From the UHGV virus genome UHGV-1460385: 23,789 nucleotides of DNA. One strand, 5' to 3'. The position numbers were made by a program, and so were the translations under genes. Numbering within the stretch: position 1 is the stretch's first letter; every line of letters begins with the position of its first letter. The notes under the pieces are model-generated. The model saw only the letters and a list, made by a program, of their open reading frames with translations. It made no database searches and had not been told where the DNA came from. This DNA is from a virus. Shown here piece after piece: positions 576-8,389 of this stretch.

Positions 576-3263
576 CTATTCCACAACATCATCTTCTATC
601 AATTCAGCCTTATTTAGTTGTTCCTTAAGCTTATTCCATGCAGAATCCTCAGGCATCTGTACTCGCACAGAAACGAATTGATTAGCAGGAATGTCGATCG
701 GGTCACCGTTCGAAACACCAGGGATGTCGTTACGTGCAAAAACGGGCGAGTTATCATGAGTGCGGTGAAACGTTTTCACCAACACAGATCCATCTTGGTT
801 AACAACATAATCCAGCCAGATGAGCGGCTGCTTGTTTCGGTCCTGCGGTATTTCAAATCCACCATCAATCCCCCCCCATGAAGCATCTGCATTCAGACCT
901 ACGCAACCCTCAATCAGATATTCACCCAATGCCAGCCGTGTGACGGTTACCCCATCTGATTCGCGATTTGTTTCACTACTACCGTCTGAGAAAATCTTCA
1001 CAACCGGAGAGGCTTTTTTGATGAAACCACTTGAATCGACGGTCGTGTTCAGCGACGACCATGCCTCAGCCCAGCCTGTGTTACCTGCGCGAATAGCATC
1101 GTCTGCGTAGCGGAAGAACAGTTTTGATGTTGTGGACATGAATATCTGCAACACACGGTTTTTTGCATATCCTGACTCCCATAATGCTCCGTTACCTGTT
1201 CCTTCTGGCTGCCAGTTTGTCACCCCACCTGCAGCTCCTATACTTACACCAGTAGACCAGTCTCCAGCAAATTCTGGAAGATTTAGTGAGTTAGGTGAGC
1301 GAATTGATACATCAACCAGACCAGGGGATCCGAGAATCGACATGCTGCGGGAGGACACCTTAGTAAAAGAGTTGTACCCGCCGTTTTTGGAAATCCTTCC
1401 TGTATAATTATTAGCCCTGTTAGTTCCATTAACTGTAATTTCCCAGGTATCGCCGTTGATGAAGTCGATCTGCAATAGGCAGAATGCTGGCAGCGTCATC
1501 TGTCCTGGCGCAGATGGCCCACCTTCAAACAGTGGCATATCCTGTTCAAGATATGTCACATATCTACCTGCATCTGTATTCCGCAAATAGTCACAAATAG
1601 CCTGTGCCGATGTAAATAGCGCAATACCATCAGCCGGGTTTACAGGGTGACGGCCAGCGTTAATCACCCTTCCGCGAGGGTTAAATAACTGTGATGAGGC
1701 ATTGGATAGCGGAGTCATGTCTACTGTTCCAGGTTCATTAGATGGACAGTTAGCGCGAATGATGTTTAAAGTCCTATAATTTGATCCGCCCCCATTGTCA
1801 TAGCGAATAGACTGTAGAAGATACAATTCCTCAGAGCCAGAAATATCACAAGACTGCACCCCCTCATTTTCAGTGGAGTAAACACTCTTCCCTGAATAAC
1901 TATCCCAGTATGTTTTGAAATCTGCAGGTGACAGCAGGTACTGACCTAATTCTGAACCATTAAGGCTGTACTCAATATAACCCTGCAACCCTGCGAAAGT
2001 ATTTCCAGATCCCGCCGTGGTAGATGCACCAATACCAGCAAATATCCGTTGAGAACCAAGAGCGACACCCTGCCGTTTTGGTTTACCGGCTCCGCGACCT
2101 CCAACATTTGCATCAACCGTAATAGTCCCCATTGGACTGTAAGATCCTTCTATAAGGCTGTTAATATCCAGTGTGTTAAAGATATTGGATACACCTGTCT
2201 CAACATCAAAAATTTTCGGCCAACCCATATCCGCATTTTCGTATATCAGGGTATTACCAAAGCCACTAAACTGATATCGCACTCCAAGGCGTGTTGATTC
2301 AGTGAAGTTTGTAATCTGCGTTTTATCAACCAGCGTACGCGGATCTTCGATAGGGTAAATTCTGATAGTGCGAGATGGGCTGTACGGCAGCAGGATGTAA
2401 CGCTGTCCTGCCACTCGGTAAACGTGGATGCCTTCTGGTGCACCAACGTTATTCGGAAAATGAAGACGTGTTACCAATGCTCCTGTTACCCAGTCATGCA
2501 CCGTAACCCATACCGATGCGGGGTCTAGCGTCTGCCAGCCGATGTATACCATTCCATCATTGCTGTCTATGTAAATCCCCTGAAATCCCATGGTCGTGTA
2601 ACCATACTGATCTTTAAGATCTGCGGTAATCTCATCGTCTATGATGCTGAATTCTAATTTCCAGTTCAGCGGCCTACGCGTACCACTGACATGCCTAGAA
2701 ATATGAGACAGGTAGCTTTTAACCCCGCCTGCGATAATGTATCTATGTTTGATCTCAGTAACAATTCCAGTTGCAACTGGAGTGCATTTATAGACGCCGC
2801 CGTTTATTCTAATAAAATTGGTTCCTGTTAGATTATCCCCAATGGCAACGTCTTTTCTACTATTCTTAAACGTCCCATTACCTAAGTCAGTAACAAGCAA
2901 TGCCCCTTCTACATATTTCAATGACTGATCAGGGTCATACTTCAGCACATTAGGAAAATAGAACTGCTGCGCACCATACGCATCATAAACAGCCATAGAG
3001 TGGCCTTGCACAGTTACGAACTTGGCAATCTGTCCGTTATATACCGGGTAACCAGCAGCGTTAATGATTATTGGTTGCGAAACAGGAACGTGAGAACCGT
3101 CTTCATTCTCCACATAGACCTGAATCTGGTTTTCTGGATTTACAGGATCAGTGTCAATTTTACCGATATAAATTTTGCCATTGGCTACGGCTTTAAAAGA
3201 ACGCGCCATAGTGAAGAGTTGCGAAGGCATCGATACGATCACATTGGCTGTAATGTCTCTCAT
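576..3263 (-). CDS. Tailspike / receptor-binding protein (895 aa): P22-type N-terminal head-binding domain fused to a large non-P22 C-terminal body
   Basis: Residues 1-110 ([40 protein letters not shown]...[12 protein letters not shown]...NVLKYDPDQ) closely match my recollection of the P22 gp9 head-binding domain. The remaining ~780 aa do not resemble the P22 endorhamnosidase body. Last gene of the late operon, after ant, as in P22. ATG at 3263 with GGAG 9 nt upstream; TAG stop at 576-578. Confidence 0.9.
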
Positions 3264-3385: not shown

Positions 3386-4315
3386 TTAAAGTTTAATTGA
3401 GTGGCACGCTCTATCACGTATCGCTGCGAATGAAGCTATCTCTTTAAGTGCCCAGCTTTGCTCAGCCATTAAATGGCGAAGTGCTTTTAGTTCAGCTCTT
3501 ACTGCTGAAACGTCATACCCCGCTTTTGTCAGAATATTGATTAGTTTATACGCCGGACTGCATTCAACGAGTGCGCTGCGGTCAAGAGCAACAGTATCAC
3601 CGCATTGCTGCCTGATAATGGCGTAAGGTGCATTTTCAGCAAACCATGAAATCGGGAAGTTAATATCCAGTTTTGGCGCTGGTAACTCTTCTTGTTTGCC
3701 AATGAACTCACCTTCAAGCGGAACGCGAGCAGCAAGTGACAGTGCTTCGGTAAACTGCTCCTCACTGATTTCTTTGTACGAACATCCAAAATGGGATTTC
3801 AGTGACGACCACATGGTGATCATCGCCTTAGCCTGTTTTTCTTTTGGCAGAGACTGACCGCGACTCATGACGAGTTGTTTAATGGCTTCCTGCTGTTCAG
3901 TGGTAATTTTACTCGGCAACGCCTTTTTAGCTTTGCGTGGGTTAACTACATGACCTTTAGTCCAGTACTCGTAGAGCACATCGTCACACTCTTCCTGATA
4001 CTGGATTACCTTGTCGCGGATTTCAGGGCGGACTTTGTTTGGACTGATGGTTTGCAGCCAGCCAGCAAGTTTGCGAAGTGCCAAACAAATAATCTCACGG
4101 CACTGTTCATCACCAGGAAGCTGCATTGTGATTTTCACAATGGAGGTTTTAAACCGTTGCTTTATTTTCGTAAACTGTGAAGCCCAATCCATACCCATAC
4201 CTTCAACGATAGGTTTCATTGGGGTGTACGGCTCACCGTTGTGATTGACGACATAAAGCTCTGCGCCGTGGAATGGTACATTGATAGTAGATACTGCTGT
4301 TGCTATACTTTTCAT
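3386..4315 (-). CDS. ant: Antirepressor Ant (P22_AR-type N- and C-terminal domains), 309 aa from ATG 4315
   Basis: Position immediately upstream of the tailspike and downstream of arc, as in P22 immI; size near P22 Ant (300 aa). N-terminal VPFHGAELYVVNHNGEPYTPMKPIVEGMGMDW...QLPGDEQ resembles the P22 antirepressor N-domain family as I recall it. The ORF-track start at 4381 is TTG; the first ATG (4315) has AGGAAA 7 nt upstream. Confidence 0.7.
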   Translation of the reverse strand: MKSIATAVSTINVPFHGAELYVVNHNGEPYTPMKPIVEGMGMDWASQFTKIKQRFKTSIVKITMQLPGDEQCREIICLALRKLAGWLQTISPNKVRPEIRDKVIQYQEECDDVLYEYWTKGHVVNPRKAKKALPSKITTEQQEAIKQLVMSRGQSLPKEKQAKAMITMWSSLKSHFGCSYKEISEEQFTEALSLAARVPLEGEFIGKQEELPAPKLDINFPISWFAENAPYAIIRQQCGDTVALDRSALVECSPAYKLINILTKAGYDVSAVRAELKALRHLMAEQSWALKEIASFAAIRDRACHSIKL

Positions 4316-4390
4316 GTCAATATTTCCTAAGACGATTTGTTGATACCGAAGCCCTGACTGTTCCAGCAGTTGGGGCTTCAACGTTTTTCC
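4316..4390 (+). ncRNA. sar: sar-type antisense RNA candidate (~73 nt) covering the ant ribosome-binding site
   Basis: Plus-strand promoter -35 TTGATA (4281-4286), 17-bp spacer, -10 TATACT (4304-4309) with TGc extension. Predicted start near 4316, directly opposite the ant start codon. Ends at a long hairpin (GAAGCCC..ACTG-ttccag-CAGT..GGGCTTC, 4348-4379) followed by ACGTTTTT. Matches the known P22 sar arrangement; transcript not demonstrated. Confidence 0.5.
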
Positions 4391-4647
4391 ACTTCATTTT
4401 GAATTTGCTTAAGTAGCATATTTGTCTCGTCAAGCCTCTTGTTAATACGGTCAAGGCTTTCTACTAAATCGTTATGTGCATGTGATACTTCGTAATTTGA
4501 GACTGATTTCTTTTCCTCTATCGTCTTTGTCAATCGTTCCCCTGATTGATACATATTGATTAGCGCTGTAAAAATCACAAGCAAGCAAACCACAATGATT
4601 GCGCCAGACAAAAATTGTAAAGAACGATCAAGCAATGACACCCTCAT
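4378..4647 (-). CDS. Hypothetical 89-aa protein with one N-terminal transmembrane helix and a charged coiled-coil tail, between arc and ant
   Basis: ATG at 4647 overlaps the arc stop (ATGA). Predicted TM segment LSGAIIVVCLLVIFTALI followed by a heptad-like charged region. No family recognised. Confidence 0.5.
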   Translation of the reverse strand: MRVSLLDRSLQFLSGAIIVVCLLVIFTALINMYQSGERLTKTIEEKKSVSNYEVSHAHNDLVESLDRINKRLDETNMLLKQIQNEVEKR

Positions 4648-4802
4648 ACCATTACCCCCTCCCTCTTCAGGCTGTCCAATACTCGCTTGTAAATCTCAGA
4701 GTTAACAGATCGCTCATTCTCTTTGGCTACCTTGCGCACCAAATCCAATACTTCTTTAGGCATCCGCAAATTAAACTGCGGCATTTTTCTTGCACCTTGC
4801 AT
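4644..4802 (-). CDS. arc: Arc repressor (ribbon-helix-helix), 52 aa; below the 60-aa cutoff so absent from the ORF track
   Basis: Translation by hand: MQGARKMPQFNLRMPKEVLDLVRKVAKENERSVNSEIYKRVLDSLKREGVMV. This matches the P22 Arc sequence as I recall it (MKGMSKMPQFNLRWPREVLDLVRKVAEENGRSVNSEIYQRVMESFKKEGRIGA). GGAG 5 nt upstream of the ATG; TGA stop at 4644-4646. Confidence 0.85.
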   Translation of the reverse strand: MQGARKMPQFNLRMPKEVLDLVRKVAKENERSVNSEIYKRVLDSLKREGVMV

Positions 4803-4836: not shown

Positions 4837-4870
4837 TTGAGAATGTACTATCACCGTTATAGACTGTCAA
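4837..4870. promoter_or_regulatory. Overlapping divergent promoters: Pmnt-like (plus) and Pant-like (minus)
   Basis: Plus strand: -35 TTGAGA (4837-4842), 17 bp, -10 TAGACT (4860-4865). Minus strand: -35 TTGACA (4870-4865), 17 bp, -10 TACATT (4847-4842). The two share bases, and the Pant-like transcript would start inside the palindrome. Confidence 0.45.
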
Positions 4871-4889: not shown

Positions 4890-5144
4890 ATGTCCAGAGA
4901 AGACCCACAATTTAAGTTGCGCCTTCCAGCAGAGTTAAAAGCAAAGTTAGACCAAAGGGCAAAAATGAATGGTCGGTCTATCAATTCTGAACTAGTTCAG
5001 ATCGTACAGAAGGCGTTATCTGAACCATCACCGATTGCAGGCTATCGAGACGAAGCTGAACGCTTGGCTGATCAGCAAGCAGAGCAGTTCAAGACTGTTG
5101 TGTTTGAGACACTTAAAAAGATTTATGGCAAGGATGATAAATAA
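4890..5144 (+). CDS. mnt: Mnt repressor (Arc/MetJ-family ribbon-helix-helix), 84 aa
   Basis: MSREDPQFKLRLPAELKAKLDQRAKMNGRSINSELVQIVQKALSEPSPIAGYRDEAERLADQQ... is near-colinear with the P22 Mnt sequence as I recall it (ARDDPHFNFRMPMEVREKLKFRAEANGRSMNSELLQIVQDALSKPSPVTGYRNDAERLADEQ...). Divergent from arc-ant across an operator. Confidence 0.85.
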   Translation: MSREDPQFKLRLPAELKAKLDQRAKMNGRSINSELVQIVQKALSEPSPIAGYRDEAERLADQQAEQFKTVVFETLKKIYGKDDK

Positions 5145-5680
5145 TGCTGCACACAATTCATTTCTTATGCCCCGTTAACACCGCCACTGTTGGGCAACTT
5201 CAGAACCACTGTCTCACCGCATTATCTCAAGGCGCAACTGAATTAAATATCCATATATCAAGTCAGGGAGGGGAAACAGCCGCTGGCTTTACTGCGTATA
5301 ACTTTCTTAAGTCACTCCCTGTTACCGTTAGAACTCACAACATAAGCAATGTTGAATCCATAGCTAATATCGTTTTCCTGGCTGGCTCAGAACGTTTCGC
5401 AAACCCATTATCAAGATTCCTGTTACATCCTCTATTATGGTGCTTTGCCTCCCCAGCCGCCGACCATGCCAGATTGAGAGAGTACGGGAAATGCCTCGAT
5501 AACGATCTTGATCGCTTCGTTGAGACGTTCAATATCGACATCGGAACCCATATTAGGTGGGCATCCCTGATAGCAGACTCGACCATTTTGGATGCTAACA
5601 AGGCTCTTGAGCATGGCATAATTAATTCCATAAAAACTGCAAGGCTGGTATCCAATCAGGCAAACTGGTGGGTTGTTTGA
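5144..5680 (+). CDS. Truncated ClpP-family (S14-like) serine protease, 178 aa, translationally coupled to mnt
   Basis: Start ATG overlaps the mnt TAA (TAATG). By-eye alignment to E. coli ClpP: NIHISSQGGETAAG vs YINSPGGVITAG; SNVESIANIVFLAG vs GQAASMGAFLLTAG (Ser); RFLLHPL vs RVMIHQPL (His); ILDANKALEHGII vs FLSAPEAVEYGLV with an upstream Asp. Ser-His-Asp spacing matches. The ~25 N-terminal residues of ClpP are absent. Confidence 0.75.
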   Translation: MLHTIHFLCPVNTATVGQLQNHCLTALSQGATELNIHISSQGGETAAGFTAYNFLKSLPVTVRTHNISNVESIANIVFLAGSERFANPLSRFLLHPLLWCFASPAADHARLREYGKCLDNDLDRFVETFNIDIGTHIRWASLIADSTILDANKALEHGIINSIKTARLVSNQANWWVV

Positions 5681-5736: not shown

Positions 5737-5958
5737 TTAGTTATCAAAAAGTCCGTACGTTTCTTCTTCTTCAGGTGTAAGGGGAAGAATCTCTACTCTA
5801 TCTATAGATACCTTTTCAATGTACCCATGAGGTCTACTTAAAATTAAAGCTCTCTCATGCCACAGAACTCCAAGAATGTGATACCTCCCAGCATCGCCTT
5901 TTACCCTGGCTCTTCCTTTGATTCTTGGCGGCATAATGCCATATTTTTTCTTTGCCAT
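5737..5958 (-). CDS. Hypothetical 73-aa protein, last gene of the minus-strand antirepressor operon
   Basis: ATG at 5958 overlaps the upstream TAA (TAATG); basic N-terminus, acidic C-terminus; followed by the terminator at 5705-5730. No family recognised. Confidence 0.45.
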   Translation of the reverse strand: MAKKKYGIMPPRIKGRARVKGDAGRYHILGVLWHERALILSRPHGYIEKVSIDRVEILPLTPEEEETYGLFDN

Positions 5959-6686
5959 TATGCAACATTACTCCCATGAATCAGGTGTTGTAGAGCTTTA
6001 ACACCTTCCGCATTGTAGCGGAATGCTTCCACCTGTTTGCTGGAATGTGCAGATTTATCCAGGAAGAACTTCCCGTACTGCTCAGTTTTGAGGTTGTTTG
6101 CGTTAGCAATGCGACCAATCTTGTTGGCCGTTACTCCAAGCTGCTCTGCAACCTCCCCTGCTGAGTAGTAATGCTCTTCTATTGCTGGAAGAGGTATTGC
6201 ATTAAAACCAACGATCGGGTTGATTATGCTTGCTGCCGCAGTCTGCTTTGCTTCCGGCGCAAGATTTGGCATCAAATCGAACAGATTGGTAACAGCTTCA
6301 ACCGTCATTTTCAATGTTCGCGCCTGGCGATACTCAACAAGTCCACTCGACGATTTACCGCTTTTAATGTGCGCTTCTTGCATACTTTCAAGTTGGTCTA
6401 CAAGTGAGCGGCGAACAGCTTTAGATTCACGAGCAGCCACTCGAAGGGCTTGCTTAATTGACATAACAACTTTTTCAGAAGTTGTCTTGTTTGATTTTTG
6501 AACTACGAAAATTTCGTAGTGCTCACCTTCAAGTTCATCCTTAATGCGTGCAATAAAGTCGTTATTTCGGACTTCTTTTTCCCCGCACTGTCTACGAGCA
6601 TGATTGACCATCTCTAACAGGTACTGGCTATCAATGGTTTTATCCGTGACAACGGATCCGATGTTTGCTACATTCTTAAAAGTCAT
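5958..6686 (-). CDS. Rha-like N-domain plus KilA-C-like C-domain protein (antirepressor-family regulator), 242 aa from ATG 6686
   Basis: N-terminal TIDSQYLLEMVNHARRQCGEKEVRNNDFIARIKDEL...HYEIFVVQKS resembles the Rha family. C-terminal YSAGEVAEQLGVTANKIGRIANANNLKTEQYGKFFLDKS resembles KilA-C-type antirepressor C-domains. AAGGA 7 nt upstream of ATG 6686; the track start at 6737 is GTG and would run through a terminator hairpin. Confidence 0.65.
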   Translation of the reverse strand: MTFKNVANIGSVVTDKTIDSQYLLEMVNHARRQCGEKEVRNNDFIARIKDELEGEHYEIFVVQKSNKTTSEKVVMSIKQALRVAARESKAVRRSLVDQLESMQEAHIKSGKSSSGLVEYRQARTLKMTVEAVTNLFDLMPNLAPEAKQTAAASIINPIVGFNAIPLPAIEEHYYSAGEVAEQLGVTANKIGRIANANNLKTEQYGKFFLDKSAHSSKQVEAFRYNAEGVKALQHLIHGSNVA

Positions 6687-6724
6687 TAGGCATTCCTTAT
6701 GTGGTAGTAAGGGTGTGACATAGG

Positions 6725-6755
6725 CCGCCAGCAGCACACTGGCGGTTTTCTTTTT
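6725..6755 (+). terminator. Orphan plus-strand intrinsic terminator in the Bro-N / Rha-like intercistronic gap
   Basis: CCGCCAG-cagcaca-CTGGCGG followed by TTTTCTTTTT. Canonical geometry. There is no annotated plus-strand gene upstream, so it would terminate an antisense transcript. Confidence 0.6.
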
Positions 6756-6774
6756 GCGCAGTCCGGCGCACCAA

Positions 6775-7401
6775 TCAATGAATCCATTCCTCGCCGCGAA
6801 GTTTTGCCAGCATTGGCTGAGCGTTCTTTACGACAAAATTGTTGGTATCAAGATTCTTCATTTCACGAAGAAGTGATTTCTTGGTTTCTTCTGACATGTA
6901 GCGAGTCTCATATGCAATATCGTAAATCCTTCCTGAAAGCTCAGAACCAATTTGCTTCATTCCTGGGTAGATGTGTTTGCACATTTGTTGACTCTTCTCC
7001 ATCCACAATTGTAAGTAGCAGAGATTAACCAGTTCTTCGTCAGTAAACTGTTTTGCAATCGGTGAGCATTCTGCCTGCCGATCCAAAATATCCAGCACCC
7101 AGCGGCGGAACTCTTTGGCTACCGGAGTGCGAGCAAACATCGCGATTAGGTGGGCACCGCGTAGTGAGAAAACTCGCACTTTTTTGCGATAATTTCCTGA
7201 GGTACTCACTTCGAGTACCTGAGTCATTCCGGCGCTAAACTCATCGCTATACTTGTTATAAATCATTGTTACTGCACGACTATTTGCGTATTTAAGTGCA
7301 GATGCAATATTAGATGATGTAAACCAAACACCATGCATATCACGGGTGGGCACCAACTCAACTCCGTGGAAGTTGTAATCTGATTTTGCTACAATATTCA
7401 T
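6775..7401 (-). CDS. Bro-N domain antirepressor-like protein, 208 aa from ATG 7401
   Basis: NFHGVELVPTRDMHGVWFTSSNIASALKYANSRAVTMIYNKY...KKVRVFSLRGAHLIAMFARTPVAKEFRRWVLDIL fits the Bro-N prophage antirepressor pattern. AGGAAA 6 nt upstream of ATG 7401; the track start at 7506 is TTG. Confidence 0.8.
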   Translation of the reverse strand: MNIVAKSDYNFHGVELVPTRDMHGVWFTSSNIASALKYANSRAVTMIYNKYSDEFSAGMTQVLEVSTSGNYRKKVRVFSLRGAHLIAMFARTPVAKEFRRWVLDILDRQAECSPIAKQFTDEELVNLCYLQLWMEKSQQMCKHIYPGMKQIGSELSGRIYDIAYETRYMSEETKKSLLREMKNLDTNNFVVKNAQPMLAKLRGEEWIH

Positions 7402-7476
7402 GTTAGTTTCCTTGCATACGGTTACTGACATAGAGGCCCGGTTTGTGTTCGCGCACTGCCGGGCTTCACTATTTTT
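7402..7476 (+). ncRNA. Second sar-like antisense RNA candidate, opposite the Bro-N gene start
   Basis: Extended -10 TGcTACAAT at 7387-7395 on the plus strand, ending 3 nt before the complement of the Bro-N ATG (same geometry as at ant). Hairpin GCCCGG..CCGGGC (7436-7464) followed by U-rich TTCACTATTTTTATT. Weak -35, and the U-tract is interrupted. Confidence 0.35.
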
Positions 7477-7648
7477 ATTGGATGACAACATCGCCCTTTG
7501 CCTCAAGTTTCATCAATAACTCCATTCGATAAGCTATCTCTGCCTGAATTGACCTATGGCATCTTTTTGCTGATTCGCGGATATGTGAATCAACCTTTTC
7601 TGTAAAACGAACCTGACGCGGCTTGATGGAAGATATCTTTTCAGTCAT
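7475..7648 (-). CDS. Arc-like ribbon-helix-helix regulator, 57 aa; absent from the ORF track
   Basis: Translation by hand: MTEKISSIKPRQVRFTEKVDSHIRESAKRCHRSIQAEIAYRMELLMKLEAKGDVVIQ. Pattern of beta-strand (RQVRFTEKV) then two helices with RS-I-EI motif is typical of Arc/CopG. GGAG 6 nt upstream of ATG 7648; TAA at 7475-7477. Confidence 0.7.
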   Translation of the reverse strand: MTEKISSIKPRQVRFTEKVDSHIRESAKRCHRSIQAEIAYRMELLMKLEAKGDVVIQ

Positions 7649-7747: not shown

Positions 7748-8389
7748 ATGAATTTTGACGATCAATTCCCATCAAGAGTATCTCTGGCAAGACAGTCCAG
7801 GGGTATGACGCAGGCGCAGTTGTCAAAATTAGCTGGTGTTGTTCAACGTCAAATAGCTGCATACGAGGGTGGTGAGGCTAAACCACGGCTTCGGGTATTG
7901 CAGGCATTAGCCAACGCATTAGGTACTACAGCTGAGTGGTTAGCTCTAGGTGAAGGTCAGGGTCCGGGAACAAAAAACGTCATGCCTGACGTTCTGGTAA
8001 AGCAAATACCAATCCTCAAACTAGATGAAGTTATGCATTACCTAAACACAGGTGAACATTCATCGTCTAGATTTCATCCGGCAATATACAATGTTGGTGA
8101 CTCTGCATTTGCATTGACTATTGAAGGTGAAGCTATGACTACAAGTTCAGGTATTAGCTTTCCCAGAGGATCGGTTGTCACGTTCAGCCCTCTAGTAAAA
8201 GCTAAAAGCAAAGATTATGTAATAGCATCATTGGATAAAGAGCAAATATTGAGCTTCAAACAGGTTTACATTGGTGAAATAGAGACAAACCTAGTATCCC
8301 TAAACCCAATGTATCCTAATATTCTTGTTAGAAATGAAGATGTTAGTATTTTGGCAACCGCAGTTTACCTTGAAATCCCGTTGCTTTGA
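7748..8389 (+). CDS. Lambda-CI/LexA-fold repressor (HTH plus S24-like C-domain) with Ala at the nucleophile position
   Basis: N-terminal Cro/C1-type HTH (MTQAQLSKLAGVVQRQIAAYEGGEAKP). C-domain aligns with lambda CI: FALTIEGEAM vs FWLDVQGDSM (Ser to Ala, codon GCT), LSFKQV vs ATFKKL (Lys kept), LNPMYPNI vs LNPQYPMI. Confidence 0.85.
   Translation: MNFDDQFPSRVSLARQSRGMTQAQLSKLAGVVQRQIAAYEGGEAKPRLRVLQALANALGTTAEWLALGEGQGPGTKNVMPDVLVKQIPILKLDEVMHYLNTGEHSSSRFHPAIYNVGDSAFALTIEGEAMTTSSGISFPRGSVVTFSPLVKAKSKDYVIASLDKEQILSFKQVYIGEIETNLVSLNPMYPNILVRNEDVSILATAVYLEIPLL

Follow-up and report, generated by a model that had tools for sequence, protein, structure and literature searches.

We analyzed an 89-codon open reading frame (ORF) located between the arc and ant genes in a 23,789-nucleotide (nt) stretch of the virus genome UHGV-1460385; this whole stretch is referred to below as the window. 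The window covers the late region of a P22-like prophage and is read on the minus strand, with structural genes running down to a homologue of the injection translocase (PF16928 Inj_translocase, E 2e-72), followed by an immI-type region and then by the tailspike gene. Our analyses suggested that the ORF, hereafter the cargo ORF, is very probably a real gene that is coupled to arc and occupies an exchangeable slot of the immI operon.

The immI region and the junctions of the cargo ORF

The genes and features of the region are as follows (positions in the window; lengths in amino acids, aa).

576-3263: tailspike with a P22 head-binding domain (Head_binding, E 1e-66)
3386-4315, minus strand: ant, 309 aa with the ATG at 4315 taken as its start (PF10547 P22_AR_N, E 5e-45)
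4281-4309, plus strand: Psar-like promoter, TTGATA-17-TATACT with an upstream TG; P22 has an annotated equivalent
4317-4389, plus strand: sar antisense RNA (Rfam RF00262 match at 4317-4383)
4378-4647, minus strand: cargo ORF, 89 aa, between arc and ant (full-length PHROG 27312 match)
4644-4799, minus strand: arc, 51 aa (PF03869 Arc, E 1e-24)
4655-4663, minus strand: Shine-Dalgarno-like GGGAGGGGG in the final codons of arc (..R E G V..), preceding the cargo ATG by about 7-10 nt
4842-4870, minus strand: Pant-like promoter, TTGACA-17-TACATT, at the same relative position as the annotated P22 Pant
4890-5144, plus strand: mnt, 84 aa, divergently transcribed (PF03869 plus PF11423 Repressor_Mnt)

This arrangement is that of a P22-type immI region. 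Arc and Mnt, both ribbon-helix-helix repressors, are encoded divergently around Pant/Pmnt, sar lies across the ribosome-binding site of ant, and ant follows 3' of arc between the ejection-protein genes and the tailspike gene. The ant start was placed by aligning the region with sar and with the beginning of P22 ant. The plus-strand sar match (RF00262, 4317-4383) scored 66.2 bits against a gathering score of 43, and the RNA folded into the two expected hairpins (-28.3 kcal/mol, z = -6.0). A terminator scan resolved the sar terminator as a 14-bp stem at 4348-4379 followed by ACGTTTTTC, with the U-tract at 4383-4388.

The cargo ORF consists of an ATG start, 89 codons and a TGA stop at 4378-4380. 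At its 5' end, the ATG (4647-4645) shares bases with the arc TGA (4646-4644), and the minus strand reads ...GGT ATG AGG..., giving an ATGA overlap. By reading of the sequence, the last arc codons, AAG AGG GAG GGG GTA ATG GTA, supply the Shine-Dalgarno-like GGGAGGGGG, so that the Arc C-terminus of the window, ..DSLKREGVMV, carries both this site and the overlap. At the 3' end, the cargo TGA forms the first bases of TGAAGCCCC, the stem motif of the sar terminator, which places the stop codon at the foot of the terminator stem. The stop codon and the last three codons overlap the terminator, and these codons, GAA AAA CGT, provide the sar U-tract on the opposite strand. sar itself covers only about 10 nt of the cargo 3' end and is complementary to the ant leader; a type I toxin-antisense pair formed by the ORF and sar was rejected on these grounds.

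A promoter scan found no promoter-like site between Pant and the cargo start, and a terminator scan found no sense-strand terminator for the ORF, the sole terminator being that of sar on the opposite strand. In P22 (BK000583), the gap between arc and ant consists of the 68-nt sar region alone, with 4 nt between the arc stop and the hairpin of the sar terminator. The original prediction had described the ORF as an addition to a P22 order in which arc and ant adjoin, starting on the arc stop through ATGA and ending in the sar terminator, and the coordinates, the P22 record and the RF00262 match agreed with all three statements.

Coding evidence

The remaining five frames of the 270 nt were open for at most 51 codons, and mononucleotide shuffling of the 264-nt body left it free of in-frame stops in only 0.1% of cases. 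Homologues of 83 aa (P0009, P0012 from Serratia marcescens, and P0013) were 44, 41, and 54% identical to the window protein in alignment, with 46% identity for P0009 over the stretch matched by phmmer. All three sit in the order arc-ORF-ant in other P22-like prophages, with the same arc overlap and with a stop at the sar hairpin. The single indel in the alignment of the window ORF against the Serratia type amounted to seven whole codons. Residues invariant across the clades comprised LSGAIIV within the transmembrane (TM) helix and S35, G36, R38, L39, I43, and E44 just after it.

Substitution patterns pointed to purifying selection. Between clades, codons 1-51 gave an omega (ratio of nonsynonymous to synonymous rates) of about 0.30 (Fisher p = 4e-4 to 2e-3), and the annotated frame was the sole stop-free frame of six. 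Its per-site ratios of nonsynonymous to synonymous differences (pN/pS), 0.43 and 0.38, were the lowest or joint-lowest, with values of 0.59 and 0.41 for the -2 frame. Differences at the three codon positions numbered 15/8/23 against L016 and 11/6/16 against L019. Inside the Serratia clade, the tail (codon 52 to the end) showed an omega of 0.10-0.13 (p = 0.003-0.006), and 32 E. coli-type copies representing 10 DNA alleles segregated at 11 synonymous and 12 nonsynonymous sites, which corresponds to about 0.3 when expressed per site (p = 0.003). When the same phages were compared, arc and the Ant N-terminal domain displayed stronger constraint than the cargo ORF and saturated synonymous sites. 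The check proposed with the original prediction, conservation together with the pattern of synonymous and nonsynonymous substitution, thus came out on the side of a coding sequence: the frame was kept, without stops and under purifying selection.

As a separate observation, the synonymous divergence (dS) of the cargo ORF between the window and L016, L017, and L019 was about 0.6-0.8, below that of the saturated arc and ant flanks. This difference is consistent with a cassette that moved between lineages after the flanks had diverged, or alternatively with extra constraint on synonymous sites.

The arc-sar slot and its cargoes

Because the corresponding position in phage Emek is taken by an unrelated ORF of 73 aa whose junctions are identical, we scanned IMG/VR for the sar terminator hairpin. 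One exact hairpin motif was found at no fewer than 119 loci, with arc present in 117, and the slot was measured between the arc stop and the hairpin. The requirement for one exact motif and the restriction to the loci listed bias this sample, and the slot frequencies are therefore rough.

In 67 of the 117 listed loci the distance was -2 to +7 nt, leaving no cargo, as in P22. The other 50 listed loci fell into ten discrete distances (33, 168, 177, 180, 186, 198, 216, 219, 237, and 264 nt), and 49 of these 50 contained a single ORF that started on the arc stop through ATGA or GTGA and ended at the TGA of TGAAGCCCC; the lone exception was a mutated Zn-ribbon copy with an internal start. Listed operons with a cargo encoded the Arc C-terminus DSL(K/R)(R/K)(E/D)G(V/I)x(V/I)*; their final arc codons were rich in G (GAGGGG in most) and led into (A/G)TGA. 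Those without a cargo had different Arc endings, such as ..EGRIGA*. The penultimate residue of most cargoes was Lys (AAA), which yields the sar U-tract. The listed cargoes formed six clusters unrelated by BLAST:

TM protein, 83/89 aa, at 7 of the 117 listed loci
57-aa protein (phrog_17642), plus a 12-codon in-frame deletion remnant
CxxC...CxxC group, 60-67 aa, including phrog_7150; one member matches the ClpX zinc finger (PF06689, E 4e-11)
CxxC protein, 74 aa
Emek-type protein, 73 aa (phrog_11805)
80-aa protein

Several of these cargoes merit individual description. The remnant, a 12-codon ORF MIRLDAAKKSKQ derived in frame from the 57-aa cargo, occurs at L043, L073, and L130 and keeps both the GTGA overlap and the TGA in the hairpin, a hint that selection acts on translation as far as the hairpin. 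Slot proteins with CxxC...CxxC, at loci such as L066, L029, L044, L039, and L059, are 60-74 aa long, and besides the PF06689 match others among them match phrog_7150 or phrog_5259; the CxxC...CxxC cargoes might mimic the N-domain of ClpX while being co-expressed with Ant. The 73-aa (Emek orf73 type) and 80-aa cargoes gave weak, sub-threshold matches to FlbD (PF06289; E 0.025 and 7e-4), and these two families may be distantly related to each other.

A literature search returned no paper on the ORF protein, its accessions or the arc-sar slot. We regard the slot, a cassette site with a coupled start and a stop inside the sar terminator that is not described in the literature searched, as a more interesting result than the ORF itself.

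The predicted protein

The predicted product comprises the following parts.

Residues ~11-32 (nt 4552-4617): TM helix, preceded by a short N-terminus
After the TM helix: conserved juxtamembrane motif SGERLxxxIE
Residues ~36-89 (nt 4381-4542): helical, roughly heptad tail

The Kyte-Doolittle profile over 19 residues reached its maximum of 2.93 at residues 12-30, and AlphaFold, run with a shallow alignment of seven sequences, modeled one unbroken helix over residues 5-88 (mean pLDDT 82). The tail is strongly charged (10 K+R and 11 D+E in residues 33-89), and hydrophobic residues recur at roughly heptad spacing from about residue 60, as read by eye with only two registers scored. These features correspond to the N-terminal TM helix and charged helical tail that had been anticipated from the sequence; of the two predictions to be checked, the TM helix was recovered clearly, and the heptad pattern was rough. 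The product is predicted to be a bitopic inner-membrane protein in which the single TM helix is followed by a helical tail that differs between clades and likely forms a coiled coil. A cleavable signal peptide was rejected on inspection, as the hydrophobic stretch spans about 22 residues and is not followed by an AxA-like cleavage site.

Family and distribution

The window protein matched PHROG 27312 over positions 1-89 of 89 (E 5.8e-60), a family that carries no function annotation, and the Serratia-type P0009 matched the same family with E 5e-19. Close copies were rare although widespread. They were found in 14 of 5426 complete E. coli genomes, and the four that were inspected were intact 270-nt coding sequences annotated as "hypothetical protein," always between arc and ant. 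Further copies occurred in two phage records (Escherichia phage EC.P3 and Salmonella phage S.Kent 1-2-1), on twelve IMG/VR contigs and on four metagenome contigs, the metagenome scan yielding near-identical copies only. No copy was found in plasmids or in the GTDB species representatives, and no Serratia-type copy in IMG/VR. A word search of 5.8 billion proteins retrieved 8 clusters, every one at least 81% identical, and exhaustive phmmer against 1.84 billion representatives gave 5 matches, among which P0009 was the one informative; P0010 was rejected as a repeat-protein artefact.

Searches for remoter relatives gave little. Pfam at E <= 0.1 returned only sub-threshold TM or coiled-coil families (DUF1664, TssO, DUF948), NCBIfam and PADLOC gave no match for the cargo protein, a PDB profile search found only designed coiled coils and chemoreceptor helices (E >= 0.009), and the single-helix model had no Foldseek match in BFVD.

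The cargo gene is foreign-looking by base composition, with a GC content of 37% compared with about 45% in its neighbors, and it is patchy among related phages. The gene on the mnt side varies among cargo-bearing loci (ClpP-like in the window and EC.P3, a YafO toxin gene in some, others elsewhere), and thus the cargo is not tied to one set of mnt-side genes. SieA type A, the P22-type sieA product, was scarce in every class examined for co-occurrence (0/21, 1/29, and 2/47). The ORF is already known as a RefSeq hypothetical protein and as a PHROG cluster, and it is an uncharacterised accessory gene of a hypervariable region.

Expression and proposed role

On the whole, we lean toward the explanation that the ORF is a coding cargo gene in a polymorphic slot of the Pant operon and that its product is an early membrane effector. 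The timing of its expression would follow from what is known in P22 of Pant, Mnt, Arc, and sar. The cargo would be translated by coupling to arc whenever Pant fires: a burst from Pant just after DNA entry, before Arc shuts the promoter off, would make it, and loss of Mnt repression would likewise. Plate transcripts pass through arc and ant toward the tailspike gene (PMC2629481, PMC12111858), and such late-operon read-through across immI would probably also yield the cargo.

Once made, the product would act at the inner membrane through contacts of its TM helix and coiled coil with a membrane complex. The invariant TM face and juxtamembrane motif, together with a tail that is kept within but not between clades, suggest a specific inner-membrane partner. 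By analogy with T4 Imm, the role that we tentatively favor is to keep out further phage DNA or competitors in the first minutes of infection, and any specific function named for this protein is a guess.

Several points weigh against the early-effector explanation. First, the omega of the tail rises to about 1 between clades. Second, decayed alleles occur, including 60-aa frameshift forms (P0006-P0008), truncated forms (P0005, P0011) and an N-terminal fusion (P0004), and the persistence of truncated and frameshifted alleles indicates that the cargo gene is dispensable for prophage carriage. Third, no homologue of known function was found in Pfam, NCBIfam, PADLOC, the PDB or BFVD. Fourth, the net charge is about +1 on both flanks of the TM helix, which makes the membrane topology ambiguous. 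In addition, Pant would be off in lysogens if Mnt acts as in P22, which argues against a superinfection-exclusion protein expressed by the lysogen.

The variant alleles were also described by length, with a 42-aa truncation and a 69-aa form. As judged from the protein sequences, the 60-aa alleles fit the deletion of one A in the AAGAAATC run. A 94-aa allele joins a foreign acidic N-terminus at residue 29 and is a candidate assembly chimaera.

Taken across all cargoes, the arc-sar junction might be a dedicated, recombination-exchangeable cassette site whose cargoes form a "first-minute" effector toolbox with the 89-aa TM protein as one tool, a view that we hold loosely and not as the likeliest. 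The conserved flanks, namely the arc 3' end ..DSLKREGxxV with its Shine-Dalgarno site and (A/G)TGA on one side and the terminator TGAAGCCCC on the other, would let unrelated small genes plug in. Each cargo would be translated together with Arc, end at the hairpin of the ant leader and sar target, and supply the sar U-tract. P22 Pant is controlled by Mnt and Arc and not by the C2 repressor; by extension, a phage entering an immune lysogen could make the cargoes even with its PL and PR silenced. The toolbox would then offer membrane proteins, mimics of the ClpX zinc ribbon and FlbD-like proteins for breaking immunity, for anti-defence or for excluding competitors.

Alternative explanations

A rather unlikely alternative, based on analogy, is host take-over, in which the product would mimic bitopic divisome proteins of the FtsB/FtsL type or another inner-membrane complex such as FtsH-HflKC, causing an early and transient block of division or of a membrane protease. 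The short N-terminus, TM helix, and juxtamembrane helical tail resemble FtsB/FtsL, and the invariant LSGAIIV face of the TM helix points to a dedicated helix-helix contact and not to simple anchoring. A precedent is SPO1 gp56, a small early phage protein that binds DivIC/FtsL and stops division (bioRxiv 10.1101/2020.02.06.938217). The ClpX-zinc-ribbon-like cargo in the same slot also makes modulation of host machinery a plausible theme. However, neither DivIC/FtsB nor FtsL nor any other Pfam family matched at E <= 0.1, and the likeness is one of architecture only, with an ambiguous topology.

It is less likely again that the slot is open mainly for reasons in cis, with the ribosome arriving from arc and ending at the hairpin of the ant leader and sar target, as the arc ribosome does in P22, thereby setting ant translation and sar pairing; the peptide would then be of little importance. 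Every listed cargo fills the slot exactly with the same TGA in TGAAGCCCC, the 12-codon remnant retains both junctions, the P22 arc stop is just 4 nt away from the same hairpin, and the tail evolves with an omega of about 1 between clades. A role in cis nevertheless leaves the amino-acid constraint unexplained (omega of 0.3 in codons 1-51 and of 0.1 in the tail within a clade, besides the conserved TM helix and motifs), and natural frameshift alleles that stop about 90 nt early persist. A cis role and a protein function may coexist.

The original prediction had also considered a modulator of Ant, and the cargo is indeed co-transcribed with ant and placed directly upstream of it, as a dedicated modulator or membrane tether of Ant would be. 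Cargo copies that are at least 93% identical nevertheless precede Ants whose N-terminal domains range from 25 to 100% identity to the window Ant; the five lowest identity bands by themselves contain 14 distinct Ants (270-311 aa), and in other phages the slot is filled by unrelated soluble proteins. A nearly invariant cargo in front of very different Ants makes such a dedicated modulator improbable.

We consider it very improbable that the ORF encodes a membrane protein with a role in lysis, such as a holin, an antiholin or an i-spanin-like protein, produced from late read-through transcripts. i-Spanins likewise have a helical domain after an N-terminal TM helix, the strand of the ORF is that of the late operon, and phrog_214 (Rz-like spanin) matched weakly (E 0.042). 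That match is not significant, however, and the ORF is flanked by arc and ant inside a regulatory immI operon, far from the expected position of a lysis cassette, with no o-spanin gene or endolysin gene adjacent to it or embedded in it; i-spanin (Rz) was accordingly set aside as similar in layout and wrong in context.

Finally, the suggestion that the ORF is spurious and merely occupies an expanded arc-ant spacer, which would suit a short, AT-rich frame without a family of known function, has almost nothing left in its favor given the rarity of open shuffles, the conservation of frame, TM helix and junctions at 44-54% protein identity, the in-frame indel and the omega below 1.

Other genes in the window

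Next to mnt, a gene at 5144-5680 (plus strand), whose ATG overlaps the mnt end, encodes a 178-aa ClpP-fold protein (PF00574, E 2e-11) in which Ser and His are apparently kept at ClpP-like positions on inspection. It is probably co-transcribed with mnt and hence expressed in the lysogen. EC.P3 has the same gene after mnt, and with the ClpX-zinc-ribbon-like slot ORFs elsewhere, Clp-related genes recur around immI.

A 213-aa CI/LexA-type repressor (HTH_3 plus Peptidase_S24) is encoded at 7748-8389 (plus strand), in the ant-moron region and far from the usual immC position. Two more antirepressor-like genes lie within 5737-7506 (minus strand), the one at 6775-7506 having Bro-N plus P22_AR_C and the other, at 5958-6737, being a 259-aa ORF without a family; a 73-aa ORF is also present at 5737-5958. 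From gene 16 to the tailspike gene, the phage therefore has as many as three genes of the antirepressor type.

Significance

The immI circuit of P22 (Mnt, Arc, sar, and Ant) is a textbook module that is usually drawn with arc and ant adjacent. In our rough sample, about 40% of the listed sar-bearing relatives had a coupled extra gene at the arc-ant junction, and the cargoes were interchangeable and unrelated. If functional, they would be made in the antirepressor burst and would merit attention as candidate factors of early host manipulation, anti-defence or exclusion. The fixed position of the stop codon within the sar terminator also suggests a mechanistic link between upstream translation and the control of sar and ant.

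Comparison with known systems

FtsB/FtsL-type proteins combine a bitopic TM segment with a coiled coil. The window ORF has no detectable homology to SPO1 gp56, FtsB, FtsL or DivIC, the hosts and phage types differ, and the analogy is one of architecture.

Small inner-membrane proteins of phages offer another comparison. T4 Imm, of about 83 aa, is located in the inner membrane and made early; the window ORF is similar to it in size and presumed early timing, with no sequence relationship. P22 SieA is likewise a small inner-membrane protein encoded in the same ant-moron region of P22 (PMC10883804), but it has three TM helices and 162-164 aa and is expressed from the prophage, whereas the window ORF has one TM helix and should be repressed by Mnt in lysogens. 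HK97 gp15 is another small inner-membrane superinfection-exclusion protein (cited in PMC10883804 and PMC3594210). Within Pfam and PADLOC, the window protein had no match to known exclusion families at E <= 0.1.

Classical morons are independent transcription units, and the window ORF has neither a promoter nor a terminator of its own; not being such a unit, it fails the strict definition. It shares with morons a patchy presence, being carried by 7 of the 117 listed sar loci of which 67 are empty, and an atypical GC content (37% versus about 45%). The proposal that the ORF is a moron made when Pant fires therefore stood in its base composition and variable presence, and gave way in its autonomy, for the ORF is coupled to arc and is one allele of a multi-allelic slot. 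It lies in the hypervariable "ant moron" of P22-like phages, which lies between gene 16 and the tailspike gene and for which sixteen genomes were sorted into ten types of gene content (Villafane et al., 2008; PMC2629481).

The closest counterparts by position are Emek orf73 (AFM54340, phrog_11805) and the other slot cargoes, which share the junctions of the window ORF and are all small (57-89 aa). They differ from it in sequence, belonging to separate BLAST clusters, and, unlike the window ORF, the other cargoes have no obvious hydrophobic TM stretch when inspected by eye.

Finally, the P22 immI region itself (mnt-Pant-arc-sar-ant, BK000583) agrees with the window in gene order, orientation, Arc, Mnt, sar, the Ant N-terminal domain and the Pant- and Psar-like promoters, and in both genomes it stands between the ejection-protein genes and the tailspike gene. 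The difference lies at the arc-sar junction, where P22 has nothing between the arc stop and the hairpin and the window has a 270-nt coding cassette together with an alternative Arc C-terminus.

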